From: an uncultured Eubacteriales bacterium
GTDB taxonomy: Bacteria; Acidobacteriota; Aminicenantia; Aminicenantales; Aminicenantaceae
NCBI GenBank assembly: GCA_964406575.1
Contig: CAYOSH010000003.1
Span: 64,447 to 128,446, forward strand
DNA length: 64,000 nucleotides
Direction of reading: 5' to 3'
The translations under genes were made by a program, and so were the position numbers. This document shows, piece by piece, positions 3,262 through 55,285 of this stretch (position 1 is the stretch's first letter; each line of letters starts with the position of its first letter). The notes under the pieces are model-generated. The model was given only the letters and a program-made list of their open reading frames with translations, did not search any database and had not been told where the DNA came from.

Positions 3262-3333
3262 CGTTCGCTCTCCTTTGCTGGGATAAACGGTCTCACGCTC
3301 AGTCGCCGCCTTGAGGAAAAAAATTAGGCTGTA

Positions 3334-3996: not shown

Positions 3997-4114
3997 ACGT
4001 GTCTCCCTCCTGAGCAAAGCGCACAACCCTCATCCATCAAAAAATTCAGCCCTAGACAACGAAATAGGGGAAATTTTTCAGCATGAGACTCCGCGATTTG
4101 TTTCCTGCAAACAG

Positions 4115-4804: not shown

Positions 4805-4896
4805 TCTTTCCTCCTAATAGAAGCGGCCAGTGTGATCATTGGCCTTCGACTGAAACATGATATATTCAAATATGTATAAATCGTACACGTCATTTC

Positions 4897-13668: not shown

Positions 13669-13672
13669 TTGT

Positions 13673-16290: not shown

Positions 16291-16304
16291 CGGCTCTTTT
16301 GATC

Positions 16305-17558: not shown

Positions 17559-17567
17559 TGTTTTTTC

Positions 17568-18041
17568 TTACTCTAAATGATCCAAAATTTCATCGATTGT
17601 TTTTTTACTCAGTTTTCCGTAGTAGTCAAAATTGACCATCATACAAGGCGCATGCTCACAAGCACCCAGGCACTCAACTGTTGTGAGCGTGAATTTTTTA
17701 TCTGAGGTTGTCTCACCCAGATCGATTCCCAGCTTATCCTTCAAGTAGTCGATCAGAGATTGTGCTCCCAAGAGAGAGCAACTCAGGTTGGAACACACCT
17801 GGATGTGATACTTTCCAACTGGCTGACGGTTGTACATGGTGTAGAATGTGACGACTTCTCTCACTTGGATGGGTTTTAGCTCCAACAGGCCGGCGAGCTG
17901 AATTTCCTCCGCAGCAGAAATATGACCAATCTCTTGCTGGACAAGATGCAGAACTGGAAGGAGAGCCGCTTTTTTTTGAGGATAGCGAGCGATAACTTCT
18001 GCTATTTTCTGTTTTGTCTGATCTGAAAATTCAGGACTCAT
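17568..18041 (-). CDS. nuoE: NADH-quinone oxidoreductase subunit E
   Basis: Start moved to MSPEFSDQTKQ (ATGA overlap with the nuoD stop). Thioredoxin-like 2Fe-2S motifs CSNLSC and VECLGACEHAPC. Confidence 0.88.
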   Translation of the reverse strand: MSPEFSDQTKQKIAEVIARYPQKKAALLPVLHLVQQEIGHISAAEEIQLAGLLELKPIQVREVVTFYTMYNRQPVGKYHIQVCSNLSCSLLGAQSLIDYLKDKLGIDLGETTSDKKFTLTTVECLGACEHAPCMMVNFDYYGKLSKKTIDEILDHLE

Positions 18042-19363: not shown

Positions 19364-19845
19364 TCTTTTCTTCTCATCGGGATAATGGGCTGCCGTTTGC
19401 GCAGAGGATAATCCTTGCGCAGGGGATGTCCCTCGAAACCGTCGTACATGAAAAGCCGGACCAAATAGGGATGCCCTTCAAAGTGGACACCGAACATATC
19501 GTAGACCTCTCTCTCCAGCCAGTTGGCATTTTTCCAGAGGGGCGTTAACGAATCGATCCGGAGGTCCTTTTCTGACAGTCGAATCTTGATCCGCAATCTG
19601 TCGTTACTGGCCAAGGAGAAAAGATGGTAGACCATCTCAAAGCGCATTTCATCCCTGATATAATCCACACAGGTCAGATCCAGAAGCATAGTGAAGGAAT
19701 GGGGCGTTTTCATCAAATAGACACACAAATCCTGCAGGAATTCTCTTTCAATAATGACAGTCTCATCCCCCAACAGGGCAGAAATCTCTTTAATCTCCTC
19801 GGGAAATTTTTCTTTGAGAATTTCGGTTATTTTCTTCTTTTCCAT
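19360..19845 (-). CDS. nuoC: NADH-quinone oxidoreductase subunit C
   Basis: 161 aa. ERE(V)[12 protein letters not shown] motif. Lies between nuoB and nuoD. Confidence 0.88.
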
Positions 19846-20696: not shown

Positions 20697-20938
20697 TGTC
20701 TTTTTATAAAGGCATAGATTTTATAAAAATAAAATGAACAATGCAATCATTTTGATATTTTTTTTACAAAAAAATTGTGGACTGCCATACAGGCGTCTTG
20801 ATAGACGCTGACAGAGCCATTTTGGACCGGAGAGATTCGACCGCTATAGAAAAAAGGCTGGAGAATTTGTTAAAATGGATGAGATCTATTCAAAGGTTGG
20901 AGTATGTTGAGTGAGAAGGATTGACCTCATCAATCGGA

Positions 20939-22558: not shown

Positions 22559-22596
22559 ATTTTTCTTGCCACACAGGCCGGGAGGGTGTCTATAGT

Positions 22597-22668
22597 GTAA
22601 GCGCAACCTTATCTGAGCTGGCACATCACAGACCGTATCCCTAACGCCTCCGGATTAGAGATGCTTTC
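22597..22668. repeat. Possible 72-bp mini-copy of the repeat superfamily
   Basis: GTAAGCGCAACCTTATCT... at the left end and ...CCGGATTAGAGATGCTTTC at the right end resemble the family termini. The flanking 9-mers do not match. Confidence 0.35.
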
Positions 22669-22724
22669 GACCTAAAGAGAGCTCTTTGACTTATCCAGAA
22701 TTGCCAGTATAATTGGAAGTTGAA

Positions 22725-24752
22725 ATGAAGCCCGATAGACAAGAAAAAAAAATTTTTGGACAGGATTTGGACCGGGACTGTTGCCATTTACTTTTGCTGA
22801 TCCTACTTCTGCTTGTGTCCCTAAAGTTCCAGTCTTGCACGAGAGGCCCAAAAACCGAGGGCAACCTGTTCCGGATCATAGACCATTTCGAAGCTCTAGA
22901 CTTTCACGAAACTGCTATCGATGCATCCGTACTCATGCGGGGACCCAAAGATGAGCAAACACCCCTTCCCTCCCCTATTGATCCTGAATTAGCAAAATTC
23001 ATCACGGAAAACCTGAACTGGGACAACACTAACGGAAGTCCCGTCCACCCAAACAAACTCAAAATTAAAAAACGCCCCGCAAAAGGCTCAGCAAGAGGCC
23101 TCCGCTCCAAAAATGTCATTCTCGCCCCTCCTCCGACTTCCTTTTCTATCACCAAGAAAATATCCAAAAATTCGGCGCTCGAGTTTGGCTACGGAATTGT
23201 GAATGAACAGTGGGAGAACGTTAAAGGTGAAGTCTCTTTCACAATAGATATTGCAGATATCAAAACACAGACCAAACAACGTTTGTTCCACACAACACTG
23301 AATCCAGAGCTAAGAGACATGGACAAACAATGGTTTGCCGAAGAGATTGATTTGGGAGAATATGCCAAACAAAATATGACCATCACCTTCAGCACCTCTT
23401 TCAAAAATGCCGACACAAACAATTGCTATTCGGCTTGGGTGAATCCGTTATTCCGGGAAAAACAGAATAAAAAGCTAAAAATTAATGTGATACTGATATC
23501 TATGGATACACTCAGAGCCGATCACCTTGGATGTTATGGCTACACGAGGAACACGAGCCCCAATCTGGATGCGATAGCCAGGGAAAGCGTCCTTTTTAAA
23601 CAAGTTATTTCCCAGGCCCCCTACACAGTCTCATCCCACATGTCGATGCTCACATCCCTCTATCCATCCTTCCACAAAGTCAATCTGATCCAAGAAAGCA
23701 CCATGAATCCAAAAATCAACACCCTTGCCGAACTCCTCTACAACAACGGGTACCGGACATGGGCCATTGTGGGTGGCGGCCAGGTCAGCTCGGATTATGG
23801 ATTCTCTGAGGGCTTCGAAACATACATCGAATTCACCTCTCCCCACCGGGATGTTTGGAGAAAAATCCAAGAAACTATCGGCTTTATCGAAAAAGAAAAG
23901 GCCAACAATTTTTTTGTTTTTATTCATTCCTATAAACCCCATGCACCTTACAATCCTATCCCTCCGTTCGACACCATGTTCGACCCGGAATATGATGGTC
24001 CCGTATCTGGGAGCATCGAGCAGATCGAGGCCATCAACTCAGGTGAGATCGAAGTGACCCCGGATGACATCGCCCACCTTATGGCTCTGTATGACGGGGA
24101 TATTCGAGAAATGGATGACCAAATCGTGGAGCTGTATGACTACTTAAAAAAAGAAGGTTTGGATCGAAGGACTCTGGTCGTTTTCACCTCTGACCACGGA
24201 GAAGAATTCGGAGAGCACGGAAAGGTCGGGGTGCACAGCCATACAGTGTACGACGAACTCCTCCGCGTCCCTTTAATCCTCCGGCTTCCGGATAAATTGC
24301 CCCCAGGAACGACCTGGGAAGACCAAGTCCGATCGATAGACATCCTCCCTACCATATTCGACTTGATCGGGATTGATTTGAAAGAGACCCCTATCCAAGG
24401 AGAATCCCTTCTTCCTCTCATAAAGAAAAGACAAGAGGGGACGAATAGACATGCCTTTAGCGAGAGATTAGCAGCTGACGGCAATCACTACAGATCTCTG
24501 CGCACTCCTCAATTCAAGTACATTATGCAAGACAATAAAAAGAAGGGTATCGTGGACCATTTCTATTATGATCTCACAGATGATCCCCGGGAACAGAACT
24601 CGCTCAAACTTTCCCCGGACAAACTTCGAGAGATGTTCAATCAAATTCTTTTCCTAGTCGAAGAGGGAAAAAAAGTGGACACATTTCAACGGGGGAAGAA
24701 AATCGACGAAGACACGCTGGAAACCCTTAAAGCACTGGGATATATTAAATGA
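22725..24752 (+). CDS. Sulfatase-fold protein with ~250-aa N-terminal extension, Thr-nucleophile variant, paralog 2
   Basis: Signal/lipobox-like LLLLVSLKFQSC. SMDTLRADHLGCYGY. PYTVSSHMSMLTSLYP at the nucleophile position. SDHGEEFGEHG. C-terminal LKALGYIK. Confidence 0.8.
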   Translation: MKPDRQEKKIFGQDLDRDCCHLLLLILLLLVSLKFQSCTRGPKTEGNLFRIIDHFEALDFHETAIDASVLMRGPKDEQTPLPSPIDPELAKFITENLNWDNTNGSPVHPNKLKIKKRPAKGSARGLRSKNVILAPPPTSFSITKKISKNSALEFGYGIVNEQWENVKGEVSFTIDIADIKTQTKQRLFHTTLNPELRDMDKQWFAEEIDLGEYAKQNMTITFSTSFKNADTNNCYSAWVNPLFREKQNKKLKINVILISMDTLRADHLGCYGYTRNTSPNLDAIARESVLFKQVISQAPYTVSSHMSMLTSLYPSFHKVNLIQESTMNPKINTLAELLYNNGYRTWAIVGGGQVSSDYGFSEGFETYIEFTSPHRDVWRKIQETIGFIEKEKANNFFVFIHSYKPHAPYNPIPPFDTMFDPEYDGPVSGSIEQIEAINSGEIEVTPDDIAHLMALYDGDIREMDDQIVELYDYLKKEGLDRRTLVVFTSDHGEEFGEHGKVGVHSHTVYDELLRVPLILRLPDKLPPGTTWEDQVRSIDILPTIFDLIGIDLKETPIQGESLLPLIKKRQEGTNRHAFSERLAADGNHYRSLRTPQFKYIMQDNKKKGIVDHFYYDLTDDPREQNSLKLSPDKLREMFNQILFLVEEGKKVDTFQRGKKIDEDTLETLKALGYIK

Positions 24753-26365
24753 GACGAGATGGTGCATTCATATTCACTGTCATTGTTTTGATTTTTTTTA
24801 TGCTGGTCTTGAGCGCTTGTGCACCTTCCGAGAGTCCAAATGTTATCCTTATCACACTCGATACTTATCGTGCCGACTATATGAGCGCTTACAGCGCGGA
24901 GCTCGTGTCAACACCGAACCTCGATTTTCTGGCTAAAGAAGGAATTCTCTTCATCAACTGTTTCAGTCCGATCCCCATCACATTTCCCGCCCATTCCGCT
25001 CTTTTCTATTCTCAACCACCACACGAACTCAAAATATACAATAATGGAGACACTCTGAGCACTGTTGATCTCAAGTCATTGGCAGAGATCTTCAAGGACA
25101 ACGGCTACGCTACAGGTGCCTTTGTTTCACTGGGAGTGTTATTGGAACGATATGGATTGAGCAAAGGATTCAAAACGTACAGTGACCAATTTCCCAAAAC
25201 GCGCTGGTATCTGACAGCAGGGGAGGTCAATTCCCGGGTATTCCCCTGGCTGGGGAAACAGGGAGAAGGGCATTTCTTTGCATGGATCCATTATTCTGAC
25301 CCGCATGATCCTTACGCACCACCGGATCTCGCCAACGATCTGAAGCTCAGCCTGAATGGCAGCCCTTTCAAAGAGCTTTGTTTGCAAAAAAACCAAGTGG
25401 AAGACATCGCCCTCTCCTTGCATAAAGGAGAAAATATCCTCCGTTTGGAAGTGGCAAACGAATTTGTTCAAAAAGAGGATGCTTTCCTGGCCAGATTAGT
25501 CCAACTTGAGTTGGTTCCCTCTTCACACGTGGAGGAGACGACTCTCCATTTCGGTCGAGGATGGCACAACACCAATAAGGGAAAGCGGATGATGCATTTC
25601 AGGAACAACGCCATTCTGAAGATCCAGAGCCCTAAAGATCAAGAGGGAGTGATCCTGAGGCTTAGGGGCAAGCTGGACATGAGAACAGAAGGAAACAGAG
25701 CATTGTACAGACGGGAGGTGGAATATCTTGACCGTGAGATCGGATCTCTGTTCGATGAGCTCAAAAGACTCGATCTTTTTGACAAAACGATCATCGTCGC
25801 CGTAGGCGATCACGGGGAAGGGTTGGGCGAATATCTCTCATCAAATGGAGCCCCCCATTTCGGTCATATCCACTATCTATATTCGGTCTATCTCAAGGTG
25901 CCGTTGGCCATCTGGAATCCTTCTTCGAAGCGCAAAAACCAGGTCATCTCACGTCCAGCCACCTTGATGGATATCTCTCCGACTGTGCTCGCCCTCATGG
26001 ATTGGAGTATTCCCTCCCAGATGAGGGGGAGAAACTTGCTGGGTGGAAAAAATGGAGACAACACGCCCAGAGAATTATTCTTCGAGACCTATGCACCTGA
26101 AGCCGACTTCAATAGATTTGCCATCCTTGCCTTTCCGCATCATTTGATCTACACGCTGGAGACAAATGTCTATGAACTCTACGATATGTCCAGCGACCCC
26201 AAGGAAAAGACAGATCTCTTTTCCATTCAGGAGCAAAATCCCAAAATTAGGGATCTCAAGCAGAGACTGGACATCTATACGCGAACAGCCCTCGCCAACA
26301 GATCCGTCCAAAAAAAAGACGAGAAGACTCTCGAGATATTGAAAGCTCTAGGGTACATCAAGTGA
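24749..26365 (+). CDS. Sulfatase-fold lipoprotein, Thr-nucleophile variant, paralog 3
   Basis: ATGA overlap with paralog 2. Lipobox LVLSAC. ITLDTYRADY, PITFPAHSALF, GDHGE. C-terminal LKALGYIK. Collinear with paralog 1, including a ~120-aa insert. Confidence 0.8.
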   Translation: MRRDGAFIFTVIVLIFFMLVLSACAPSESPNVILITLDTYRADYMSAYSAELVSTPNLDFLAKEGILFINCFSPIPITFPAHSALFYSQPPHELKIYNNGDTLSTVDLKSLAEIFKDNGYATGAFVSLGVLLERYGLSKGFKTYSDQFPKTRWYLTAGEVNSRVFPWLGKQGEGHFFAWIHYSDPHDPYAPPDLANDLKLSLNGSPFKELCLQKNQVEDIALSLHKGENILRLEVANEFVQKEDAFLARLVQLELVPSSHVEETTLHFGRGWHNTNKGKRMMHFRNNAILKIQSPKDQEGVILRLRGKLDMRTEGNRALYRREVEYLDREIGSLFDELKRLDLFDKTIIVAVGDHGEGLGEYLSSNGAPHFGHIHYLYSVYLKVPLAIWNPSSKRKNQVISRPATLMDISPTVLALMDWSIPSQMRGRNLLGGKNGDNTPRELFFETYAPEADFNRFAILAFPHHLIYTLETNVYELYDMSSDPKEKTDLFSIQEQNPKIRDLKQRLDIYTRTALANRSVQKKDEKTLEILKALGYIK

Positions 26366-33897: not shown

Positions 33898-34911
33898 ATG
33901 AAGAACACAAGAATCATACTCATGCTTCTTTTCCTTGGATTGGGTATTGGACTCCATTCCTTTCCGAAACCACAGCCGTACTCTGACCAAGAATGTCTGA
34001 CCTGTCACGCTAAAATTAACCTTGCCCAGGTGCTTGGAGACGGTTCCGTCCGATCTCTATTCGTGGATCCCGAGAAATGGTCACAGGATGTGCATCAAAA
34101 AGGGCACCTCTCCTGCGTGGACTGTCACACTGCAGCCAATCCCTATGTGCATTTTCGCGAAGGTTTTCTCGATGTCGACTGCGCCAAATGCCACCCCGAA
34201 CAAGCCGAAGAATACCTCAAGAATGTCCATTATGAATTTACGCCCATATCTCCAGATAAGGAGCTTCCTCTTTGTTATGACTGCCACACCAAACATCATA
34301 TCCTGCGTCACGACGATCCGTCCGCATCCATAAACAAAAAAAACATCGAAGCCACTTGCGGAGAATGCCATCCGGAAGTGATGGTCAAAAGTATTCTCAA
34401 AGGCGCTTCTTTAGGAAAAATCTCGGGTCATCGAAAGGGTGATATTTCAGAAAAATTCGACATGGCCACTTGTATCAAATGTCATAATCCAGCGCATGGA
34501 ACCAATACGGTTTACCAAGACTTCTGCACGCGCTGCCATAATCCGGAAAAAACAGCGGACATCGCACTAGGCCCCACTCACTTGAATTCGGCCAAGTGGA
34601 TGGGATTCAACACCGCAGGAGATAGCTTATCTCTCCTTCTTATTCTGGGGACTTTTGTCTTCCTAGGCTACAAATCTCGGAAAACCTTTGCAGGGAAATT
34701 GAGAGATTGGCACGACTCCATGAAAATCGAGAAGGAACCGAGGCAAGGCGACAAGGAAGAGGCGAATCGGGATAACATCCATGAAGGAGACGAGATCAAA
34801 GAGGAAAAAGAAGGAGACGCAGAAAGAGAAGAAAAAAAGGCGGAAGAAAAAGGAAGCGAACTCGATAGCGCTGCTAACACAGAGCACAAACAAGAAAACG
34901 ATGAGCACTAA
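33898..34911 (+). CDS. Heptahaem c-type cytochrome with a C-terminal TM anchor and an acidic/Lys-rich tail
   Basis: Start moved to MKNTRIILMLLFLGLGIG (GGGAGG RBS). Seven CxxCH motifs: CLTCH, CVDCH, CAKCH, CYDCH, CGECH, CIKCH, CTRCH. The TM helix is LSLLLILGTFVFLGY. Confidence 0.85.
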   Translation: MKNTRIILMLLFLGLGIGLHSFPKPQPYSDQECLTCHAKINLAQVLGDGSVRSLFVDPEKWSQDVHQKGHLSCVDCHTAANPYVHFREGFLDVDCAKCHPEQAEEYLKNVHYEFTPISPDKELPLCYDCHTKHHILRHDDPSASINKKNIEATCGECHPEVMVKSILKGASLGKISGHRKGDISEKFDMATCIKCHNPAHGTNTVYQDFCTRCHNPEKTADIALGPTHLNSAKWMGFNTAGDSLSLLLILGTFVFLGYKSRKTFAGKLRDWHDSMKIEKEPRQGDKEEANRDNIHEGDEIKEEKEGDAEREEKKAEEKGSELDSAANTEHKQENDEH

Positions 34912-35491
34912 ATTGAAGAAATATGGGATGCTTTTTGACCTCAGGAAGTGTATCGGCTGCAACACATGTGCCATCGTGTGCAAGAGTGAAAACGATGTCC
35001 CCCTCAGTGTTTGGCGATCTTGGGTCAAAAAGGTAGAAAAGGGGCTGTATCCCCATGTGGCAGAAGTTGCTCTACCTATCGTGTGTAACAACTGTGAGAA
35101 TCCGATCTGTGTCACAGTCTGTCCTGTCAATGCAGGGATCAAACGCGCTGACGGCATTGTGTATATCGATCCGCACCGGTGCATAGGCTGTCGCTATTGC
35201 ATGGCATCCTGCCCCTACGGAGTGAGGTATATCAATCCTCGGAAAAAGATCGCAGAGAAGTGTTATTGGTGCCATCACAGAGTCGATGCAGGCCTTCTGC
35301 CAGCATGCGTTTCTGCCTGTCCCACCGGCGCCATCCTGTTCGGCGATCTGAACGATCCCGAGAGTGAGATCACTCGGGCGATTGCCAAAAATGCCGTTCA
35401 GGTCATCAAACCCGAAATGGGAACGCAACCCCAGACATATTACATCGGCTTGGATATCGAAGCCGTAGAGGCGGTGAAGAAAGAGGAGTGA
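34901..35491 (+). CDS. 4Fe-4S ferredoxin-type subunit (PsrB/NrfC/DmsB family)
   Basis: Start moved to MSTKLKKYGMLFDLRKCIGCNTC. Cluster motifs CIGCNTCAIVC, CNNCENPICVTVCP, CIGCRYCMASCP and CYWC...CVSACP. Confidence 0.88.
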   Translation: MSTKLKKYGMLFDLRKCIGCNTCAIVCKSENDVPLSVWRSWVKKVEKGLYPHVAEVALPIVCNNCENPICVTVCPVNAGIKRADGIVYIDPHRCIGCRYCMASCPYGVRYINPRKKIAEKCYWCHHRVDAGLLPACVSACPTGAILFGDLNDPESEITRAIAKNAVQVIKPEMGTQPQTYYIGLDIEAVEAVKKEE

Positions 35492-36387
35492 TGGAGATAC
35501 AGGTCCTTTACAACATCAATCACCAGGAGGCTTTTGGCCTTTTTATAGCGATTTATTTCTACCTCACCGGCTTGAGCGCCGGCTCTTTCATACTCTCTAC
35601 CCTGTCTTATGGCTTCGGCATGGAGCAGTACAAACCTCTGGGAAAAGTGGGCGTTGTTCTCGCTACGGTCCTTTTGGTGATCGCTCCTTTCTTCCTGCTC
35701 TTCCATATCGGAGCCCCATACAGAGCCTGGCATCTTTTTGTCTATCTTAACTGGTCCTCACCGATAACCTGGGGTTCTTTTTTACTGGTGCTTTATCCCA
35801 TTAACTGCATCATCTACGGCTTTTTTATGTTCAAGAACAATCTCAAGCTCACTCGGCTGTTTGGCTTCATCGGCATTCCTCTGGCTATTTCTGTCCATGG
35901 ATACACGGGATTCATCCTGGCCTTCGGGAAAGCCAGAGCTCTTTGGAATACAGCCTTAATGCCCATTCTTTTCCTTGCATCAGCCATCGTGTCTGGGATA
36001 GCCCTAATGATCCTTGTCTGTATCATCAAAGGCCGTTATTTTTCCAAGGAAAAAAAGATCGACCGGTCATTGATATTCAACCTGGCTCGACTGCTGGCAT
36101 GGATGATCGTCTTTGATCTATTCCTGGTTGTGAGCGATCTTCTCGTCTTGTCTATCTCTCACTCGGATGCGCAGGCCGTTTATCAGCTTCTTCTCGGAGG
36201 AAATTTCAGCATTCTTTTCATAATCGTGGAGAATGTATTGGGCAAGATCATCCCGTTCATTCTCCTTGTCGTCCCCAGGTTCAGGACAATGTTCACCGTT
36301 ACCGTGGCCTCCATCTTGGTGGTCATCGGCATCTTTGTCATGAGATATGTTGTTGTTTTAGCTGGCGAATTTCTTCCTCTGTTATAG
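35488..36387 (+). CDS. NrfD/PsrC-family integral membrane quinone-interacting subunit
   Basis: 299 aa and ~8 TM. Position and overlaps are typical of the membrane subunit of complex iron-sulfur molybdoenzymes. Confidence 0.8.
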   Translation: MMEIQVLYNINHQEAFGLFIAIYFYLTGLSAGSFILSTLSYGFGMEQYKPLGKVGVVLATVLLVIAPFFLLFHIGAPYRAWHLFVYLNWSSPITWGSFLLVLYPINCIIYGFFMFKNNLKLTRLFGFIGIPLAISVHGYTGFILAFGKARALWNTALMPILFLASAIVSGIALMILVCIIKGRYFSKEKKIDRSLIFNLARLLAWMIVFDLFLVVSDLLVLSISHSDAQAVYQLLLGGNFSILFIIVENVLGKIIPFILLVVPRFRTMFTVTVASILVVIGIFVMRYVVVLAGEFLPLL

Positions 36388-36395
36388 ATAAAAAA

Positions 36396-38699
36396 ATGCT
36401 GCGAAAAAGGTACTCACGGCGACGGTTCATGAGAACCGGAATCACATGGACTATGGGTTTATCGGCCGGGCATCACCTCATGTCCGGACCAAACAAACAG
36501 AAAATGGATGCGGTCTCTCGCACATCGCTCAAATCCCTGGCATCGATCCCGACCACATGTACACAGTGCGCTGCTGGATGTGGAGTTCTGGCCTACTTAA
36601 ACGGCAGCGAGCTCGTCCAGGTTCTGGGAAATCCTGAGCATCCGATCAATCATGGAGGAATCTGTGCCAGAGGAGTCGCGGGGATAAACCTTGCCAACGA
36701 TCCCGAACGATTGCTATATCCCTTGAAAAGAATCGGTCCCAGAAATGACGGCCCCTGGACACGCATCACCTGGGATGAAGTGTACACTGTCTTGAGCCGC
36801 CGGGTCAAAGAATCCAACCGAGAAAACCGGGCCAATGAATGTGTTTGGGACATTGGCGAAAGCGATCCCCTTCTCAGCCGTTTTATGACCGCTATGGGAT
36901 CACACAACATCATCGATAGAAATCTCCTTAAGAATAGAAATCGAGATCTTGCCTTGCGCTCCATGACAACCCATACCTCTCTCCTCGAAGATGTGGGACA
37001 GAGTCGGACTATCTTAAACTTTGGAGCCAATCCCTATGCAAATCACGAACGTTTTCTGCCCATAAGCCGACAGCTCGTAGATGCCCGCATCAATAAAGGC
37101 GCAAGGCTCATCACCTTTGATGTCAGGATGTCGGAAACCGCCGCACAGAGCGACGAATGGCTTCCCATTCGGCCGGGAACAGACGCCCTGGTCGCTTTGG
37201 CGATGGCACGTGTCATCCTGGAAAAGAATCTCGCCGATAACACATTTATCCGTTCAAGGACAAACGTCTCCATAGATCAGCTGAGCCGTCATCTTGCTCC
37301 ATATTCACCGGAAGTCGCGGAGCGGGAAAGTGGTGTGAAAGCTGCGGTGATCGAGAGACTTGCTGTAGCATTTGCATCTCAGAAACCCTCTGTGGCCATA
37401 TTTGGAGGGGGTATCTGCGATCACGAAAACGGAACTCAAAACGTCAGGTGTATCTCACTCCTCAATTGGATCACAGGGAATTTGGGAAAAGAAGGGGGTG
37501 TCCTTGTTCCCTCTGCGCCAGGACCTCTTTCGAATAACTCATGGAACGAACAAAACTTTTCGAGGAAAACAGAAGACGGGAGTGTGACCTTTTCCGACCT
37601 CTTCGGAAAACAACTCAAGGTGAATACCTATATTGCATACAAGGCCAATCCTGCTTACTCAGAGCCAGACAACACAAAAGCAACGCGTTTTCTTATGGAC
37701 CAAAACAATGTGCCCTTTCTTGTCGTGATCGACACTCACTTCACAGAAACAGCCAAACTTGCTGACCTCGTTCTCCCTGCAGCTTCCTATCTTGAAGGAT
37801 GGGGAGTGGAGATCAGATCTCTCATCGATGGGAGGCATGTCCTTAATCTCAGACAGCCGGTTGTCTCACTCCTGAGCAGCGCCCAAACTCTACGTTTACC
37901 TGACTTTGAACCAGGAAAACTTCTCGAACCTTCCTTTCGTCCCAGAGGCGAAGCCAAGGAAATCGGAAACGTGTGTCTAGAGCTTGCCCGAAGAGTGGGA
38001 GAAGACATAAAACATCATTTGCCTTTTAAAGACACAAAAGATTTTATCACACACCTTGTCACATCCCTTCCCGATTGTGATTTCAACACCTTAAAAACGA
38101 AGGGCTACTGGATGGACAGACCCTCTAAAACCGACTCCCGAATACCACAGATGAATAAGTCAAATGGCACATTGAACAGTGTCTCGATCTATTCTCAATC
38201 CCTTGAAGATAAATTCGGTGGTTCATTGCCTTCCTATGTTCCACTCAAGTCACTCAAGGGGTTAAAACCCCATGAGTTCATCCTTACGACGTACAAATCA
38301 AACCTCTGGGCTAGAGGAGCAGCGAACAGCAAGTGGGCACGGGAAATATTTCACGAAAACTGCCTGTGGATCAATCATCAGGCAGCGGAAAAACTCGGTG
38401 TCGCTAACGGAGAGAGAGTGCGTGTCGTTTCGTCTCTGGGAGCGCTTGAGGTCCGCGTGTGTACCACCGGGCGCATCCATCCCCAATCACTGGCTCTTGC
38501 GGAAGGGTTGGGGCATGATGCCATCGGGAATGTTGCCAAAGCCAGACGTTTCAAGAGTTCTGATCTGGACACAACTCTCATCTGGTGGACGAAAGCTGGC
38601 CATGGCGTAAATCCCTTTAGTATCATCGAAAACGAAAGGGACCCCTTTGGGGGCGGTTATGCCCTCAAGGATACAGTCGTCCGTATAGAAAAGATATAA
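36396..38699 (+). CDS. Tat-exported molybdopterin-oxidoreductase catalytic-type subunit (Psr/Phs/Ttr-like); substrate unknown
   Basis: Twin-arginine signal SRRRFMRTG. FS0 motif CTQCAAGCG...GGICARG. MopB-type segments LNFGANPYANH and EWLPIRPGTDALVALAMA. C-terminal beta-barrel-type domain (GERVRVVSSLGALEVRV). Confidence 0.82.
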   Translation: MLRKRYSRRRFMRTGITWTMGLSAGHHLMSGPNKQKMDAVSRTSLKSLASIPTTCTQCAAGCGVLAYLNGSELVQVLGNPEHPINHGGICARGVAGINLANDPERLLYPLKRIGPRNDGPWTRITWDEVYTVLSRRVKESNRENRANECVWDIGESDPLLSRFMTAMGSHNIIDRNLLKNRNRDLALRSMTTHTSLLEDVGQSRTILNFGANPYANHERFLPISRQLVDARINKGARLITFDVRMSETAAQSDEWLPIRPGTDALVALAMARVILEKNLADNTFIRSRTNVSIDQLSRHLAPYSPEVAERESGVKAAVIERLAVAFASQKPSVAIFGGGICDHENGTQNVRCISLLNWITGNLGKEGGVLVPSAPGPLSNNSWNEQNFSRKTEDGSVTFSDLFGKQLKVNTYIAYKANPAYSEPDNTKATRFLMDQNNVPFLVVIDTHFTETAKLADLVLPAASYLEGWGVEIRSLIDGRHVLNLRQPVVSLLSSAQTLRLPDFEPGKLLEPSFRPRGEAKEIGNVCLELARRVGEDIKHHLPFKDTKDFITHLVTSLPDCDFNTLKTKGYWMDRPSKTDSRIPQMNKSNGTLNSVSIYSQSLEDKFGGSLPSYVPLKSLKGLKPHEFILTTYKSNLWARGAANSKWAREIFHENCLWINHQAAEKLGVANGERVRVVSSLGALEVRVCTTGRIHPQSLALAEGLGHDAIGNVAKARRFKSSDLDTTLIWWTKAGHGVNPFSIIENERDPFGGGYALKDTVVRIEKI

Positions 38700-38727
38700 A
38701 ATCGCGAGGTTTTGGAAAACTAGGAGT

Positions 38728-40020
38728 ATGAAAGACATGACAAAAAAGTTCATACCCATAACGCTTGTTCTGGTTTTCGTTTGCGGTCTAAGCGCTGCAA
38801 CCATGACGATGATCGAAGGCTCTCAGGGAAGCATCAAAAGATTGACCCACTCGGGGAATGACGTGGCCAAGTACCCCAGTATGAGCAACGATGGCCGAAA
38901 AATCATATACACTCTAGAGCTCAAGGAAAGTGAAGAGCAAGCCAAAGCTATCCTTTTTATGGACTTGGACGATGGCCAGACAAAGGAGCTATTTCGCGAC
39001 GGGACGATAAAGGCACCAGCTCCTTATGACAAATACGACTTGTGCGTCGGATCAAAGCCTCCGTTGCTGAACGCAAACGGAAAAGTCGCAGTGTTTACCA
39101 TGAGTATAGGTGAACCCATAAACCTCGAGGATCATTATTTGGCGGTGATATCTACGGAGAAAACAAGACTCTGGATGACGTCCTTCCCCATCTCGAAATT
39201 GGAAGGTAAAGACATAAAATCGCTGGAGTTTAAGGGGGGCGATTGGGAGAGAGTGGCCAATTATGCCATCAGTGCAGATGGGAACAGGATCGCGTGCCTT
39301 GTCAAAGGGCACTTGGGCCCCAGGAGATACGGAAGCGCGAGTGGCATCATACTCCTGGATATTCCTGGACAAAAACAGTCCACTCTTCTCGCACCGGACT
39401 TCAAAGACAACGAATGGATCTGGACCTCATTCCCCCGGAGGCCCGCCGCAGGGGGAGCTTGGGCGTTTTGTATGAGCGGAGACGGCGAAAAGATTCTCTT
39501 TGGAGCTCAATTCTCTGAAAACCCGAATGATTATGACCTTTTTATTGCTGAATGGACGAATCGAAACATTCAACGATTGACGGATTTTGCGGACCGGTGG
39601 TTCAGTCTTGCCGACATAAGCCAAAACGGAGAGGCGATCGTTTTCTTCTATTCAGGGCAAAAAAAGGAAGGCATCGGAACTTACCGAGTTCAGAGTGATG
39701 GGACCGGACTCACTTACATCGAATCTCAAACAGTGCCAAAAATAGATTTTTTTGACCTGTCAGGAGACGGACGATTTCTCCTGTACAAAAATATCTATCA
39801 AGGAATAAGGCTTGATCTCATATCAGGCCAAGAAACTCTCGCATATTCAGAGAAGACAGACGGTTATATCACAGGTCTGATGCCCATGGATTTCCCCAAT
39901 TATCCATCGTTTTGGATGCCCCATATCATGAATTTCTCAGGGGATAGAATTCTGCTCGTTGGCCCCCCTCCAGGTAAAGAAAGTCCGGAAATATACCTCT
40001 TATCACTCGATGAAAGATAA
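38728..40020 (+). CDS. Periplasmic TolB-like (PD40/WD40-like) beta-propeller protein
   Basis: Signal peptide, then about seven S.DG..I.F-type blades: SNDGRKIIYT, NANGKVAVFT, SADGNRIACL, SGDGEKILFG, SQNGEAIVFF, SGDGRFLLYK. Confidence 0.7.
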   Translation: MKDMTKKFIPITLVLVFVCGLSAATMTMIEGSQGSIKRLTHSGNDVAKYPSMSNDGRKIIYTLELKESEEQAKAILFMDLDDGQTKELFRDGTIKAPAPYDKYDLCVGSKPPLLNANGKVAVFTMSIGEPINLEDHYLAVISTEKTRLWMTSFPISKLEGKDIKSLEFKGGDWERVANYAISADGNRIACLVKGHLGPRRYGSASGIILLDIPGQKQSTLLAPDFKDNEWIWTSFPRRPAAGGAWAFCMSGDGEKILFGAQFSENPNDYDLFIAEWTNRNIQRLTDFADRWFSLADISQNGEAIVFFYSGQKKEGIGTYRVQSDGTGLTYIESQTVPKIDFFDLSGDGRFLLYKNIYQGIRLDLISGQETLAYSEKTDGYITGLMPMDFPNYPSFWMPHIMNFSGDRILLVGPPPGKESPEIYLLSLDER

Positions 40021-40021
40021 A

Positions 40022-40627
40022 ATGCCCCTAACAAAGTACAGAAAACGATTTTGGGTGGTTGTCTCCCTCGGAATTACCGTGGTCCTTCTCACAAGTGTGG
40101 GACTTGGTATTTATCTTGTCCGTATCTCTGCCACGAGTGACCGCGTGTGTCTCCAATGCCATCCGAAGCTTTTTGCACGCTGGCAAGAATCCAAGGGTCA
40201 TCCTGCAGCGACAACGTCATGCCATGAATGCCACTCCAAAGGTCGAAAAATCATTCCCCCGGATTGGAACATAACCAGGCACTTGCGCGACCAAATCGCC
40301 CCTCCAGAATATTTGGCCGATGACCTATTGACATCGCAACGCTGCCTGGATTGTCATACCGATGTGCTTGATCTTGGTTATGAAGTCAAAAAGAAAGTCA
40401 TAAAATTCACACATCGCATTCACATCGATGAGGGGCTGGCGTGTGTGGATTGCCACCGAAATGCTGGACACTCATACCAAACGGGGGGCACCAACCGGCC
40501 TTCCATCGAAGAATGCCGAGACTGTCATATCAAGGAATTCACAGGCCCCCCGAAGTCCCAGAAGTGCTTGAGCTGTCACGATGTGATACTGACTCCAGGA
40601 AAGACTTGGTACCTACAAAGGCCATAG
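40022..40627 (+). CDS. Membrane-anchored hexahaem c-type cytochrome (NapC/NirT-like quinol dehydrogenase type)
   Basis: Start moved to MPLTKYRKRFWVVVSLGITVVLL (N-terminal TM). Six CxxCH motifs: CLQCH, CHECH, CLDCH, CVDCH, CRDCH, CLSCH. Confidence 0.8.
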   Translation: MPLTKYRKRFWVVVSLGITVVLLTSVGLGIYLVRISATSDRVCLQCHPKLFARWQESKGHPAATTSCHECHSKGRKIIPPDWNITRHLRDQIAPPEYLADDLLTSQRCLDCHTDVLDLGYEVKKKVIKFTHRIHIDEGLACVDCHRNAGHSYQTGGTNRPSIEECRDCHIKEFTGPPKSQKCLSCHDVILTPGKTWYLQRP

Positions 40628-40724
40628 GCGATGCACGTAAGGTTTGAGCTAGCAGGATTGCAAAAAAAGGATTCAAAGGAGTTTAGGAGAGAAAAGAAAC
40701 GACTGGGAATACGGATGCTTTGAG

Positions 40725-42698
40725 ATGATCAAGACACTCGATTTTTTCTTTATTCTCTGTCTCCTTGTAACACTTTTCTGGGGAATAAACAGGCGTTTCC
40801 GGTTGTGGCATACGGGAGTGGAAGACAACCGCTCCGACAAAATGGGATTCCGTCTAAAATCTCTATTCTCAGAAGTCATATTTCACCGTTCTATTCTTCG
40901 AGATACCTATCCAGGGACTTTGCATCTTTTCATATTCTTCGGTTTTTTCATTCCTCTAGCCGTGATTTTTATCGTCCAGTTCATGTTCACTCTCCCCCAA
41001 CCCATTGCCCGCCTTTTTTCATTCTTACTGGATATTGTCGGGTTTGCTGCATTCATCTCTCTCTGTCTAGTCCTCTACCGCCGCTATGTCACACGTCCAT
41101 CACGGTTATCAAACAAACCTGAGGACCTGGTTGTTGTCCTTTTGCTCCTTTGCGTTATTCTGACTGGTTTCCTTGTCGAGAGCTTGCGCCTTTCTATCAT
41201 CGGAAAGGATACGCAAGTTTGGGCACCCATCGGTCATGTATTGGCTTCTTTGTGGAACACAACGGGCCTGGATAATCAAGTCAAAAGCACATTGACCGCG
41301 CTCTTTTTCAGAATACATTTTTTTCTTGTCCTCGCCACGATCGCTACTATGCCCTTCTCCAAGCTTTTCCACTTGATCTCTTCACCGTTGAATATCCTTT
41401 ACCGCTCCCTTGAACCGAAGGGCGCTTTGAGCCACATGGATCTCGAAGATGAGGCGGCTGAAAGCTTTGGGATCAGTACGATCGCAGAATTCTCATGGAA
41501 ACATCTCCTGGACCTTGATGCCTGCACACAATGCGGAAGGTGCCAGGACCACTGCCCCGCTTTTCTCACCGACAAACCCCTATCTCCGAAAGTGTTGATC
41601 AATGATCTCAAGAATCACATGCACCTCCAGATCCCTCAACAGTTCAAGCAAAAAGCAAAAAAAAGGGAGGCCCCAGAAAGTTCGCCTCTTGTTGGGACTG
41701 TCATTGCCGAAGATGTCCTGTGGGCATGCACGACCTGCCGATCGTGCATGGAGCACTGCCCCGTATATGTGGAACATGTGGATAAGATCGTCGACGTGAG
41801 ACGGTATCAAGTGCTGATGGAAAGTAAGTTTCCAGATGAGCTCACTGCGGCTTTCCGCGGATTGGAAAAAAATTCAAATCCCTGGGGTCTTGGGTTCGAT
41901 GCGCGTGCCGACTGGGTGGGAGAAATGAAGGTCCCCATTCTATCAGAGGTCGGCAGTAAGGCAATAGAATATCTGTTCTTTGTGGGATGTATCCGCTCCT
42001 ACGATGACCGCAATAAAAAAGCCTCGCTGGCTATGATCAAAATCCTCAACCACCTGGGTGTCAAGTTCGCTATTCTGGGGATGGAGGAAGGATGTTGCGG
42101 GGATCCAGCTCGACGGGTCGGAAACGAGTATCTCTACCAGATCCTTGCGCAGACTAATATCGAGACATTCCAGCGATACAACATCCAAAAAATCCTGACG
42201 ACCTGTCCGCACTGTTATAACATGCTCAAGAACGAGTACCCTCAATTGGGTTTTTCAAGCGAAGTCGTCCACCACACAACCTTTCTGTGGGAAAGCTTGA
42301 AAAAGGGTCAACTCAATCTTAAAGAAAACCGGGCCGGGACAATCACCTATCATGATCCCTGTTACCTTGGCAGGTACAGTGATATATACGAGCCGCCGAG
42401 GCACATCCTTCGATCCATCCCCTCTCTGGATGTCCAGGAGATGAAACGTTCAAGGGGTGATTCCTTGTGCTGTGGCGCGGGGGGCGGTTGGATGTGGATG
42501 GATGAGAAGATAGGGAAAAGGATCAACATCGAGCGCCTCGAAGATGCCCTCGCCACTCATTGCAAAGGCGTGGCAACAGCATGCCCGTTCTGTGTCACGA
42601 TGTTCAACGATGCGATCAAAGACAAAGGGCTGGAGGACGATTTCAAGATTTGGGATATCGCTGAGATCATTGCTGATTCCATCGCTGATGCCGATTAG
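40725..42698 (+). CDS. Fused membrane b-type-cytochrome-like (NarI/DsrM-like) plus HdrD/DsrK-like Fe-S/CCG-domain oxidoreductase
   Basis: N-terminal ~230 aa with 5-6 TM and conserved His in the helices (TLHLFIFFGF, RIHFFLV, LFHLISS). Then CTQCGRCQDHCP and CTTCRSCMEHCP, and two CCG motifs (GCCGDPARR, LCCGAGGG). Confidence 0.78.
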   Translation: MIKTLDFFFILCLLVTLFWGINRRFRLWHTGVEDNRSDKMGFRLKSLFSEVIFHRSILRDTYPGTLHLFIFFGFFIPLAVIFIVQFMFTLPQPIARLFSFLLDIVGFAAFISLCLVLYRRYVTRPSRLSNKPEDLVVVLLLLCVILTGFLVESLRLSIIGKDTQVWAPIGHVLASLWNTTGLDNQVKSTLTALFFRIHFFLVLATIATMPFSKLFHLISSPLNILYRSLEPKGALSHMDLEDEAAESFGISTIAEFSWKHLLDLDACTQCGRCQDHCPAFLTDKPLSPKVLINDLKNHMHLQIPQQFKQKAKKREAPESSPLVGTVIAEDVLWACTTCRSCMEHCPVYVEHVDKIVDVRRYQVLMESKFPDELTAAFRGLEKNSNPWGLGFDARADWVGEMKVPILSEVGSKAIEYLFFVGCIRSYDDRNKKASLAMIKILNHLGVKFAILGMEEGCCGDPARRVGNEYLYQILAQTNIETFQRYNIQKILTTCPHCYNMLKNEYPQLGFSSEVVHHTTFLWESLKKGQLNLKENRAGTITYHDPCYLGRYSDIYEPPRHILRSIPSLDVQEMKRSRGDSLCCGAGGGWMWMDEKIGKRINIERLEDALATHCKGVATACPFCVTMFNDAIKDKGLEDDFKIWDIAEIIADSIADAD

Positions 42699-53320: not shown

Positions 53321-55285
53321 ATGCCGTTACTCGATTTGATCCCCTATTCCTTCATCATCGGGCTCATCGGCTTGATGATCGCGATTTCCATATATTTTTT
53401 AGTCAAAAGCTACCCCAAGGGCAGTGTAACCATGCAAGAGATCGCGGAAGCCATTCATTCCGGAGCGATGGTTTTTCTAAGGAGAGAATATCTTTTTATT
53501 TCAATTTTTGTTGTGGTTGTGTTTCTTGTCCTTTGGAGACTCTTTTCCGTATACACAAGCCTGGCTTTCATCACTGGGGCCAGTTGCTCGATGCTGGCAG
53601 GATTTATAGGGATGAAGGCCTCAACACGGGCAGCCGTAAGGGTGACTCAAGCAGCCATATCCGATGGAGCTGCAAAAGCGCTGACTATTGCTTTTCAAGG
53701 TGGGGCGGTCATGGGAATATCTGTTGCCGCCCTGGGAGTTGCAGGAATCAGCATCTTCTATTTTTTCACTAGAAATCCCATTATTATTAATGGTTTCGCT
53801 ATGGGAGCCAGTTCTGTCGCTCTGTTCGCTCGCGTGGGAGGAGGGATCTTCACAAAAAGCGCCGATGTGGGCGCGGACCTTGTCGGCAAAGTAGAGGCTG
53901 GCATTCCGGAAGATGATCCCCGAAATCCGGGAGTTATTGCAGATAACGTGGGGGATAACGTGGGTGATACAGCGGGCATGGGTGCAGACCTCTTCGAATC
54001 CTATGTGGGATCAGTCATTGCATCGATGGCCCTTGGCGCAACACTAACGCCCGCGTTGAACCATATGTCCCTGCCTCTTCTCCTTATTGTCGTAGGGCTT
54101 TTCAGCTCACTCATCGGGGTATTTTCTATAAAAATATTGAAGAATTTCCACCCCCAATCCGCTTTAAGGAATTCAACATACATCAGTGCTCTCCTGTTTG
54201 TTGCGGGAGCTTTTTTCTGTGTGAAAGCCCTTTTGGGAAATCTGGATATATTCTTCGCGGTTGTGAGTGGCATGTTCGCTGGGGTGCTTATCGGACTCGA
54301 GAGCGAATACTTCACTTCCGGTCCTCCCATAAAAACTCTGGCGAAAACCGCTCAAACGGGCAGTGCCCCCACCATCATCATGGGATTGGCCATCGGTTTT
54401 CAGAGTACAATTCTTCCCCTTCTCACCATCGCTGCAGCGATATTTGTATCCTATAGACTCGGTGGACTTTACGGAATAGCCCTCGCTGCTGTGGGGATGC
54501 TCTCGACCATTGGGATCGTCATGACGACCGACTCTTACGGACCCATAGCAGACAATGCCGGTGGAATAGCCGAAATGTCGCATGCCGGCACTGAAATCCG
54601 AAAGATCACAGATAAGCTTGATGCTTCTGGAAACACGACTGCGGCCGTAGGGAAGGGTTTCGCTATAGGGTCTGCGGCTCTCACCGCACTCGCCCTTTTC
54701 TCGGCGTATCAAAAAACGACCGGCCTTTCATCCATAAGCTTGACGAATGTGGAAACAGTCATTGGTCTCCTCATCGGCGCACTAATGCCTTTTGCCATCT
54801 CCTCTTTCACTTTAAAAGCTGTAGGACGGGCGGCGGATAAAATGGTGACAGAGATCCGAAGACAGTTCAGAGAAACCAAGGGGCTCATGGAAGGTGATGT
54901 CAAACCTGATTCTGACCGCTGTATCAATATTGTAACCCACAGCGCTTTGATCGAGATGATCCTTCCCGGCCTTCTCGCTGTGATTACGCCTCTTCTTATC
55001 GGATTCCTCATAGGACCGGAATCACTGGGTGGTTTCCTAGCAGGAGCGACAGCCACCGGTGTGCTCTTAGCCATTTTTATGGCGAACGCAGGCGCGGCAT
55101 GGGATAACGCCAAAAAGTGGATCGAAGAAGGAAATCTGGGCGGGAAAGGGACCGCGGTTCACGCCGCTGCTGTAATCGGTGATACCGTAGGAGACCCCTT
55201 GAAGGATACCTCCGGTCCTTCCATGAATATATTGATTAAGCTCATGGCTGTTGTCAGCCTTGTCTTTGCTCCACTCATTCTTTAA
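53321..55285 (+). CDS. hppA: Membrane-integral pyrophosphate-energised cation pump (K+-dependent signature)
   Basis: 654 aa and polytopic. GGG(I)[25 protein letters not shown], and [10 protein letters not shown], where Ala (not Lys) sits in the GNTT(A/K)A motif. Confidence 0.92.

Follow-up and report, generated by a model that had tools for sequence, protein, structure and literature searches.

A conserved seven-gene module of Aminicenantes that may link electron-transfer flavoprotein to a periplasmic complex with a MopB subunit lacking the metal-ligating cysteine

We analysed a 64,000-nucleotide stretch of contig CAYOSH010000003.1 (hereafter the window), derived from an uncultured bacterium of the Aminicenantes lineage. 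The listing of open reading frames (ORFs), their spacing and motif counts revealed seven co-directional, closely spaced genes on the + strand at 33898-42698. Their order is c7-FeS-NrfD-MopB-propeller-c6-EtfD, where c7 and c6 stand for heptahaem and hexahaem cytochromes c, FeS for an iron-sulfur subunit, and EtfD for the last gene, referred to below as gene 7. We propose, with a probability of roughly 0.55, that the seven genes form one unit, a dedicated chain that would lead from cytoplasmic dehydrogenases dependent on electron-transfer flavoprotein (ETF) to a periplasm-facing multi-cofactor complex. More tentatively, MopB and the propeller might represent a new class of molybdenum- or tungsten-bis(pyranopterin guanine dinucleotide) (Mo/W-bisPGD) proteins without a protein ligand to the metal, placed at the catalytic end of that chain.

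The gene set was consistent in both layout and content. As a sequence-only reading of this DNA had described, all genes lie on one strand and overlap or are separated by less than 30 nt, save for the last gene, which follows a 97-nt gap (about 100 nt in that reading). The list of parts given there was likewise borne out by Pfam and NCBIfam matches (Fer4_11, NrfD, three MopB domains, Nitrate_red_gam and two CCG domains) and by seven and six CxxCH motifs in the two cytochromes. We collected 78 metagenomic loci by a scan with the propeller alignment and mapped the window proteins onto their ORFs. The seven-gene order was identical in all 35 Aminicenantes loci that were long enough to hold the whole set, and the flanks were normally those of the window, a divergent dihydrolipoamide-dehydrogenase-like gene and a convergent threonine-aldolase-like gene. 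The same genes with the same flanks were found in the complete Aminicenantes genome CP070825.1 (54% MopB identity) and in two contigs whose MopB is 88% identical to that of the window; the closest MopB homologues with an organism name came from Candidatus Aminicenantes metagenome-assembled genomes (MAGs), at 53-88% identity. The module thus has a stable place in the chromosomes of this phylum and is neither an island nor an assembly accident, and the seven genes are a real, strongly conserved operon, far beyond chance. A promoter and terminator scan of the 30.5-44.3 kb region gave nothing above the shuffled expectation and does not inform the operon boundaries. A genome-contig scan with a single MopB sequence returned only one irrelevant Verrucomicrobiae fragment.

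Modules outside the Aminicenantes were found by contig look-ups for MopB proteins of 35-40% identity (Table 1). A complete Gemmatimonadota genome, CP070758.1, is also among the carriers. Orthologues of all seven components were present in these other lineages at 23-63% identity, in an order that was sometimes permuted, and their cytochromes carried seven and six haem motifs wherever the gene calls were complete. Since the content is kept while the order is shuffled, the genes appear to act as one functional unit. The respiratory module of parts typical of complex iron-sulfur molybdoenzymes (CISM) and NrfD proteins, with cytochromes, a propeller and a NarI-HdrD-type fusion, which the sequence-only reading had recognised, is thus conserved across lineages. 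Moreover, beta-oxidation genes adjoin the module in four of the six non-Aminicenantes loci, two of which (L007 and L090) also carry etfBA; this adjacency ties the whole module, and not just gene 7, to ETF-dependent oxidation. Relatives of MopB that lack the propeller are wired differently. In L008, the B-C-A-cytochrome genes are followed by separate NarI and CCG genes; the L009 relative lies among bc complexes and many multihaem cytochromes; ferredoxins and a flavoprotein follow in L093; and L010 has the canonical Cys, a TorD-like chaperone and TatA. The propeller-linked set is therefore a distinct sub-family.

Two of these loci held further genes of note. At 950-19322 of L009, two Rieske/cytochrome b complexes and no fewer than five large multihaem cytochromes surround a Cys-less MopB (P0132); two of the multihaem cytochromes are associated with Ni_hydr_CYTB-type b subunits, one by fusion and one encoded next door. 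The region looks like a locus for extracellular electron transfer (EET). At 4555-8136 of L005, upstream of the propeller-linked module, a NarI-like gene accompanies a second, signal-less MopB of 704 aa. Many corrinoid methyltransferase genes (MTTB, B12-binding, URO-D, RACo) lie in this region, a setting that is unusual for respiratory genes of this type.

The nature of gene 7 was clarified by a search against all PDB sequences, in which its product matched the cryo-EM structure of Mycobacterium smegmatis EtfD (9OJN_A) with 416 bits and an E-value of 2.4e-123; the soluble domain is about 50% identical. Against the NCBIfam DsrK model it scored 73 bits, where the cut-off is 400. Pfam detected Nitrate_red_gam (PF02665), Fer4_8 and two CCG domains (118.6 bits). 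The chain thus comprises an N-terminal NarI-like b domain with about five transmembrane (TM) segments by hydropathy, two cubane [4Fe-4S] motifs and two CCG (non-cubane cluster) domains. All EtfD ligands reported in PMC13083937 were matched, namely four Cys per cubane cluster and the Cys/His sets of both CCG clusters, and H67 and H216 aligned with the haem ligands His78 and His241 of M. smegmatis EtfD (MsEtfD). Among 50 orthologues, H54, H67, H198, H216 and 17 of the 18 cluster Cys residues were invariant, and the eighteenth Cys was present in 46. The residues of the second His pair are 18 positions apart, presumably as in E. coli NarI. Four invariant His and this spacing make two membrane-spanning haems b, and with them a dihaem b domain, likely.

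By its sequence, gene 7 belongs to the EtfD/EMO family of ETF:menaquinone oxidoreductases and is not a protein of the DsrMK type, to which the sequence-only reading had compared the fusion. Because it falls in this family, its cytoplasmic partner is most likely ETF and not the thiol/disulfide acceptor envisaged there, and the position of orthologous modules behind acyl-CoA dehydrogenase (ACAD) and etfBA genes points the same way. The orthologues in L007, L090 and L091 are 46-50% identical to gene 7. The MsEtfD structure was described as an ETF-to-menaquinone wire (PMC13083937), and for the Syntrophus EMO, both ETF binding and the use of transmembrane haems b were described (bioRxiv 10.64898/2026.08.18.745454).

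The MopB subunit has an SRRRFMR twin-arginine motif and, by hydropathy, no hydrophobic TM segment. Its Lys179 occupies the column of the Mo-ligating Cys/Sec in pairwise alignments with PsrA (Cys173) and the formate dehydrogenase FdhF (Sec), and profile alignments to PsrA, ArrA and FdhF placed it in the same column; this loss of the ligand was absent from the sequence-only reading. The residue is Lys in 116 of 120 close homologues, within a conserved L-K-N-x-N-R stretch, and related propeller-linked MopB proteins have K, G, R, A, H or E at this position. No Cys, Ser or Asp near K179 was invariant among the 120 homologues. As alternative metal ligands we considered D174 and S189, and both were rejected since they are not invariant (Asp in 86 and Ser in 95 of the 120). 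Analogy with an EMO-formate dehydrogenase loop would suggest a role in formate oxidation or as a CO2 reductase; this was also set aside, as the Sec/Cys-His pair is K-N in this protein.

Other elements of the active-site region are retained. The FS0 cysteines C55, C58, C62 and C90 are invariant. The same is true of four motifs, D-x-R, P-G-T-D, N-P and A-D-x-x-L-P, that we take to line the pterin pocket in this fold. With 35 Cys-bearing relatives as a control, the clade of the window MopB was found to keep 84% of their conserved columns, including D242, R244, T262, D263 and R351. In a second Cys-less group of that alignment, D242, D263 and R351 are mostly gone; QrcB is its best or near-best NCBIfam match (320-331 bits), whereas the window protein and its neighbours match PhsA best and QrcB with only 150-180 bits. 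These sequence features suggest that the pterin cofactor is probably still bound, with a metal that has no protein ligand. The Lys-Asn-x-Asn-Arg stretch in place of Cys would loosely resemble the ligand-less type of arsenite oxidase and iodate reductase. Among the collected proteins, P0212-P0268 make up a large Cys-less group of this QrcB-like kind, with QrcB as best NCBIfam match below the cut-off and D242/D263/R351 lost; its FS0 motif (CxxCxxxC...C) is complete, although QrcB is reportedly free of cofactors, and by sequence the group may be a further uncharacterised MopB lineage.

The closest solved relative of MopB is PsrA, at about 22% identity, with 322 bits for the family profile; the same profile gave 59-71 bits against ActB chains. 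No curated NCBIfam family claims the protein, as all scores are below their cut-offs (score/cut-off: PhsA 260.1/694, QrcB 182.6/440, ArrA 129/1600, TtrA 101.8/1750). Its AlphaFold2 model (mean confidence, pLDDT, 81.5) had ArrA, PsrA and formate dehydrogenases as top Foldseek matches, with a TM-score of about 0.75. A search of 1.84 billion cluster representatives showed a sharp drop in score from the Aminicenantes clade (60% identity) to proteins of 39% identity and below. In a rough neighbour-joining tree, a sketch drawn without curated references, the protein stood among other Cys-less proteins, apart from the clades with the canonical TSIC/SLC motif. A MopB inside a well-characterised clade with this gene order would have contradicted the sequence-only reading; with PhsA as best match at well under half of its cut-off and PsrA as a distant relative, the protein lies outside the characterised clades. 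According to a 2023 survey of the MopB superfamily, loss of the cofactor occurred in Nqo3, ActB and FhcB, and all novel lineages described there use Cys; a Psr-like, Lys-bearing, propeller-linked lineage is not listed in it.

The heptahaem protein has an N-terminal signal peptide (hydropathy segments at residues 4-22 and 239-257), and the second segment forms a C-terminal TM helix (about 239-257) that is followed by a charged, Lys/Glu-rich low-complexity tail (within 34600-34911 of the window). It matched Cytochrome_C7/c3_2 in Pfam. Seven CxxCH motifs were present in 39 of 42 orthologous ORFs, and the seven-haem orthologues in L005, L090 and L091 were 34-39% identical. In CP070825.1, the orthologous protein has 297 aa instead of 337, a difference of about 40 aa. 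For the hexahaem protein, the ATG at 40010 is the most likely start; the mechanical ORF begins at TTG 39959, and the gene call in the 88%-identical locus L003 agrees with the ATG. It has a TM segment at residues 16-34 and six CxxCH motifs, a number shared by 60 of 70 orthologous ORFs. A family profile was built from seven orthologues and searched against the PDB. The ActA chains of alternative complex III (ACIII) came first (8K9E_A at 3.6e-10, together with 6LOD_A and 6F0K_A; range 3.6e-10 to 6.7e-7), followed by NrfH (2J7A_C, E 8.4e-7), which was covered over nearly its full length. NCBIfam scores were low (score/cut-off: QrcA 26.9/180, NrfH 25.2/134, NapC/NirT 17.8/310), and in CLQCHPK, the first haem motif, the His is not followed by Met. 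The description "NapC-like" in the sequence-only reading is therefore partly supported: the NrfH match upholds it, but ActA matches better and the NapC and NrfH models scored far under their cut-offs, so that by sequence the protein may be called NapC/NrfH/ActA-like, and NapC-like only loosely; a quinol site of its own, as that reading supposed, is putative.

The propeller protein gave no Pfam match above threshold, with faint Tricorn_N matches in homologues. Its AlphaFold2 model (pLDDT 78.6) has seven blades and matched oligogalacturonate lyase, the propellers of S9 peptidases and TolB in Foldseek; against the PDB, Foldseek returned only generic propellers, so the fold gives no functional clue. 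The 253 homologues at E<=1e-5, where named, are all "hypothetical" or bear a generic Tol-system label. In every Aminicenantes locus, as well as in L005, L007, L089, L090, L091 and L092, the gene lies directly 3' of MopB; the protein is as conserved as MopB, and the family is restricted to this module. One homologue of 64% identity, P0294, is labelled "Candidatus Heimdallarchaeota archaeon" in NCBI; because the family is otherwise bacterial, this is probably a mis-binned Aminicenantes contig.

These properties of MopB, the hexahaem protein and the propeller are also those by which a different role has to be weighed. As in ACIII and Qrc, MopB could be a non-catalytic scaffold in a menaquinol:cytochrome c (or cytochrome c:menaquinone) oxidoreductase, whose 13 haems would shuttle electrons between the quinone pool and periplasmic or outer-membrane partners, for example in EET, with the propeller in a structural or docking role. 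The absent Cys/Sec ligand, the variability of its position in related propeller-linked proteins and the ActA subunits as best solved relatives of the hexahaem protein speak for this arrangement, as do the surroundings of the L009 relative and the absence from the cluster of a TorD-like chaperone, which the Cys-bearing relative in L010 possesses. Modules of NrfD, FeS and multihaem proteins have been widely proposed as menaquinol:cytochrome c oxidoreductases (PMC7327174, PMC9386147), and propellers recur in multihaem EET operons (PMC5539420). Nevertheless, QrcB reportedly has no cofactors (PMC13059093) and ActB lacks Mo/W-bisPGD (PMC10100899), whereas the window MopB keeps the invariant FS0 cysteines together with D242, R244, T262, D263 and R351, three of which the QrcB-like group has lost. 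The profile scores favour PsrA over ActB by a wide interval, and the strong conservation of L-K-N-x-N-R would be unexpected for a dead site. We regard this scaffold role as rather unlikely, and it is the alternative to the ETF-to-periplasm chain that we take most seriously.

The remaining two subunits resemble those of several families. The FeS protein matched Fer4_11, and the 16 Cys read from its translation fall into four ferredoxin motifs, that is, four [4Fe-4S] clusters. It aligned with PsrB (2VPW_B) over the full length with 184 bits, and it was below every NCBIfam cut-off (TtrB 218/416, DsrO 198.6/200). The orthologues in distant loci were 53-63% identical. It has neither a signal peptide of its own nor a TM segment and is presumably co-exported with MopB, which depends on the twin-arginine translocation (TAT) pathway. 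An out-of-frame ORF at 34781-35491 would extend the gene in the 5' direction with a poly-Lys stretch and is probably not real. The NrfD protein scored 155.8 bits with PF03916 and has about eight hydrophobic segments by hydropathy; its best NCBIfam matches, DsrP (80.8, cut-off 350) and NrfD (79.3), were far under cut-off, and so were TtrC (42.6/314) and QrcD (53.9/570). Phmmer searches of the PDB with the NrfD and heptahaem sequences gave no or only marginal matches. The order of the B, C and A subunits, which the sequence-only reading had thought unusual, equals that of ttrBCA and is common among relatives, including those with the canonical Cys.

The same parts would also fit a transmembrane complex of the Dsr/Hmc kind, in which a DsrMK-like module couples periplasmic redox reactions to a cytoplasmic thiol/disulfide (DsrC-like or heterodisulfide). 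The domain set (cytochrome c, FeS, NrfD, NarI-like, HdrD-like) parallels DsrMKJOP and HmcABCDEF, DsrO is the second-best NCBIfam match of the FeS protein and just misses its cut-off, DsrP is the best for NrfD, and L008 has separate NarI and CCG genes as in DsrMK. We consider such a coupling improbable, given the low DsrK and DsrP scores, the close match of gene 7 to EtfD, and the etfBA and ACAD genes next to orthologous modules; neither dsrAB nor dsrC was found among the window ORFs scanned or in the fetched loci.

The weakest alternative, and a very improbable one, is a conventional terminal reductase of the Psr/Phs/Ttr type, in which menaquinol would reduce a sulfur compound and the cytochromes and the EtfD-like gene would play an accessory part or just happen to lie nearby: PhsA/PsrA and PsrB/TtrB as nearest relatives, the PsrC-like anchor with eight TM segments, the ttrBCA order and the annotation of MopB by the JGI ("thiosulfate/polysulfide reductase chain A") agree with it, but the defining Mo-ligating Cys is replaced by Lys, which argues against a plain Psr/Phs/Ttr/Arr-type reductase, the PhsA, TtrA and ArrA scores lie far under their equivalog cut-offs, four extra conserved subunits co-vary with MopB across lineages, and electrons at the level of ETF (about -10 mV) should not reduce polysulfide or thiosulfate exergonically.

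In the proposed ETF-to-periplasm chain, acyl-CoA dehydrogenases active in fatty-acid or amino-acid breakdown would reduce ETF, and the HdrD-like domain on the cytoplasmic side of the EtfD/EMO-type protein would be its docking site. Two non-cubane and two cubane FeS clusters would conduct the electrons to a pair of membrane-spanning haems b, and these would reduce menaquinone or, as another option, pass electrons directly to a neighbouring membrane-anchored cytochrome. The NrfD subunit, with eight TM segments, and its four-cluster PsrB-like partner would re-oxidise menaquinol on the periplasmic side, and the FeS subunit would deliver electrons to FS0 and the pterin site of MopB and to the anchored six-haem and seven-haem cytochromes. 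MopB and its obligate beta-propeller partner would form the site at which a periplasmic or extracellular acceptor is reduced, with the 13 haems connecting to this acceptor or to other periplasmic or outer-membrane partners. We infer the assembly into one complex, the menaquinone intermediate, the direction of flow, the use of Mo or W and the substrate. The acyl-CoA/enoyl-CoA couple lies near -10 mV, and polysulfide and thiosulfate, which the sequence-only reading had suggested as acceptors, would therefore be poor sinks that need an input of energy, judging from standard potentials. An acceptor of positive or near-zero potential, such as an oxyanion, a metal oxide or a humic-type compound, is more likely.

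Several observations weigh against this chain. Without the Mo-ligating Cys, MopB may be non-catalytic, and no TorD-type chaperone or Mo-cofactor gene was present among the window ORFs scanned. Tblastn searches with ETF, ACAD, 3-hydroxyacyl-CoA dehydrogenase (HADH) and enoyl-CoA hydratase (ECH), run over the window and about 1.08 Mb of fetched loci, gave matches only in L007, L089 and L090; etf and ACAD genes were found neither in the 64-kb window nor within 10 kb on either side of the module in the 78 Aminicenantes loci. For the organism of the window, the link to ETF thus draws on homology and on other lineages. Moreover, L005 has the six periplasmic genes among methyltransferase genes with no adjacent EtfD. 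By analogy with Qrc or Hmc, the same parts could run in reverse.

In anoxic sediments, Aminicenantes (OP8) are abundant; these uncultured heterotrophs are generally portrayed as fermenters. A module that drains electrons of the ETF level into a respiratory complex, if true, would alter models of their energy metabolism. To our knowledge, EtfD/EMO enzymes have so far been linked only to the aerobic chain in mycobacteria or to formate and H2 production in syntrophs; in Syntrophus, re-oxidation of the quinol has been attributed to a formate dehydrogenase or a hydrogenase. The module offers a new downstream partner for these recently solved enzymes. It also brings to attention a sizeable Psr-like MopB lineage that keeps FS0 and the pterin-pocket residues, carries Lys at the position of the metal ligand and always occurs with a dedicated propeller. 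The automatic annotation of these genes as "thiosulfate/polysulfide reductase" is probably mistaken, and this bears on inferences about the sulfur cycle from metagenomes. If MopB and the propeller do form a ligand-less catalytic unit, uncultured anaerobes that oxidise fatty and amino acids (Aminicenantes, Gemmatimonadota and deltaproteobacterial MAGs) would gain an acceptor outside the known anaerobic respirations, or, as the alternative outcome, would export beta-oxidation electrons to the outside of the cell. We found no description of the seven-gene combination in the searchable literature, which left out the survey of the NrfD family by Duarte et al. 2021.

Table 1. Genes of the module and the upstream barrel gene in the window, and gene arrangement of related modules in other lineages
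Feature	Position	Strand	Details
Outer-membrane beta-barrel, 924 aa	30933-33707	+	Pfam CarboxypepD_reg and OMP_b-brl_4; 190 nt before the heptahaem gene
c7, heptahaem c-type cytochrome	33898-34911	+	7 CxxCH
FeS, PsrB-type ferredoxin subunit	34901-35491	+	11-nt overlap with c7
NrfD/PsrC-type membrane subunit, 299 aa	35488-36387	+	4-nt overlap with FeS
MopB, TAT-exported	36396-38699	+	8-nt gap after NrfD
Seven-bladed beta-propeller, signal peptide	38728-40020	+	28-nt gap after MopB
c6, hexahaem cytochrome c, N-terminal TM anchor	40010-40627	+	11-nt overlap with propeller
Gene 7, NarI and CCG fusion, EtfD/EMO family, 657 aa	40725-42698	+	97-nt gap after hexahaem gene
L007, Gemmatimonadota, complete genome			ACAD-ETFb-ETFa-c7-FeS-NrfD-MopB-propeller-c6-EtfD
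L090			TetR-HADH-ECH-ACAD-ETFb-ETFa, 40 nt, then c7-FeS-NrfD-MopB-propeller-c6-EtfD; all on one strand
L089, deltaproteobacterial MAG			acyl-CoA synthetase-MerR-thiolase-HADH-ACAD-FeS-NrfD-MopB-propeller-c6; contig end
L092			thiolase and HADH divergently upstream of FeS-NrfD-MopB-propeller-cytochrome
L091			EtfD-c7-NrfD-FeS-MopB-propeller-c6; EtfD and c7 overlap by 4 nt
L005			FeS-c6-NrfD-MopB-propeller-c7

L002-L004 and many of the 78 loci also have the outer-membrane barrel gene 5' of the module. It is not present beside the non-Aminicenantes modules and lies outside the conserved core, and its membership in the module is uncertain. A role as part of a porin-cytochrome conduit was rejected as having no specific support: the synteny is confined to Aminicenantes, and there it extends to the flanking housekeeping genes. 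In CP070825.1, an additional 275-aa gene is located between the barrel and the cytochrome. Elsewhere in the window, part of a complex I operon occupies 13195-19845 on the - strand, with Pfam matches for a NuoI-like ferredoxin, NuoH, NuoG (with a degenerate MopB domain), NuoF, NuoE, NuoD and NuoC; the organism therefore has a quinone-dependent chain with an NADH dehydrogenase, in keeping with the proposed ETF-to-periplasm chain. Three consecutive sulfatase-family genes of 545, 679 and 538 aa (20921-26365, +) suggest degradation of sulfated polysaccharides or glycans. A membrane H+-pyrophosphatase (53321-55285, +; 852 bits to PF03030) and an efflux-type OEP/ABC/ABC/HlyD cluster at the left window end (1708-6156, -) were also present.

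Compared with the known complexes, the module shares with PsrABC of Thermus thermophilus (2VPW) and with Phs, Ttr and Arr a TAT-exported MopB with FS0, a four-cluster B subunit and an anchor with eight TM segments. It differs from them in the Lys for Cys, in a MopB identity of about 22% and in scores that are all under the equivalog cut-offs; it adds two multihaem cytochromes, the propeller and EtfD, and its cluster has no TorD-like chaperone. In the case of TtrBCA, the gene order matches and the scores of all three subunits do not.

ACIII and Qrc, like the module, contain an anchored multihaem cytochrome, FeS and NrfD subunits and a MopB-type subunit in which the Cys ligand is missing. The pterin cofactor is gone from ActB and QrcB, and QrcB has reportedly lost all cofactors, whereas the window MopB keeps FS0 and residues that are conserved in Cys-bearing enzymes. 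Moreover, ActB is a fusion of MopB and FeS parts, which are encoded separately here. The module has one NrfD-type subunit of about eight TM segments, ACIII has two (ActC and ActF), and Qrc has a single one of ten (QrcD). The cytochromes of ACIII are the pentahaem ActA and the monohaem ActE, as opposed to six- and seven-haem proteins in the window. The module has the propeller, the second cytochrome and EtfD in addition. Similarity to QrcABCD does not reach the family level for QrcA, QrcB or QrcD.

DsrMKJOP and HmcABCDEF likewise combine a periplasmic cytochrome c, FeS and NrfD with a NarI-like/HdrD-like module, but they include neither MopB nor a propeller. The DsrK, DsrP and DsrO scores stay below their cut-offs, DsrJ is trihaem where the window cytochromes carry seven and six haems, and the partner of DsrMKJOP is DsrC, while that of gene 7 is taken to be ETF and no dsr genes lie nearby. 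The propeller and multihaem cytochrome operons of syntrophic/EET Desulfobacterota reported by Skennerton et al. 2017 (PMC5539420) also hold a conserved periplasmic propeller beside multihaem cytochromes, a likeness that refers to their description and not to a sequence comparison; those propellers are six-bladed and occur with soluble 16- and 26-haem cytochromes and a peptidyl-prolyl isomerase (PPIase), and the operons have no MopB, NrfD or EtfD.

The EtfD/EMO enzymes, ETF:(methyl)menaquinone oxidoreductases known from M. smegmatis, M. tuberculosis (Rv0338c) and Syntrophus aciditrophicus, have the same single-chain architecture as gene 7, which keeps the cluster ligands and the proximal haem His pair and lacks the disordered C-terminal extension of about 30 kDa found in mycobacterial EtfD. 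With its four invariant His, gene 7 has two predicted haem sites, compared to one haem in MsEtfD and three in the Syntrophus enzyme (SaEMO). Unlike mycobacterial EtfD and Syntrophus EMO, it is part of an operon with a MopB/NrfD/cytochrome module. Among CISM/NrfD-type complexes, the traits that set this module apart are the Cys-to-Lys exchange in MopB, the obligate propeller, the two anchored multihaem cytochromes and the coupling to an EtfD/EMO-type protein, and hence the probable link to beta-oxidation.

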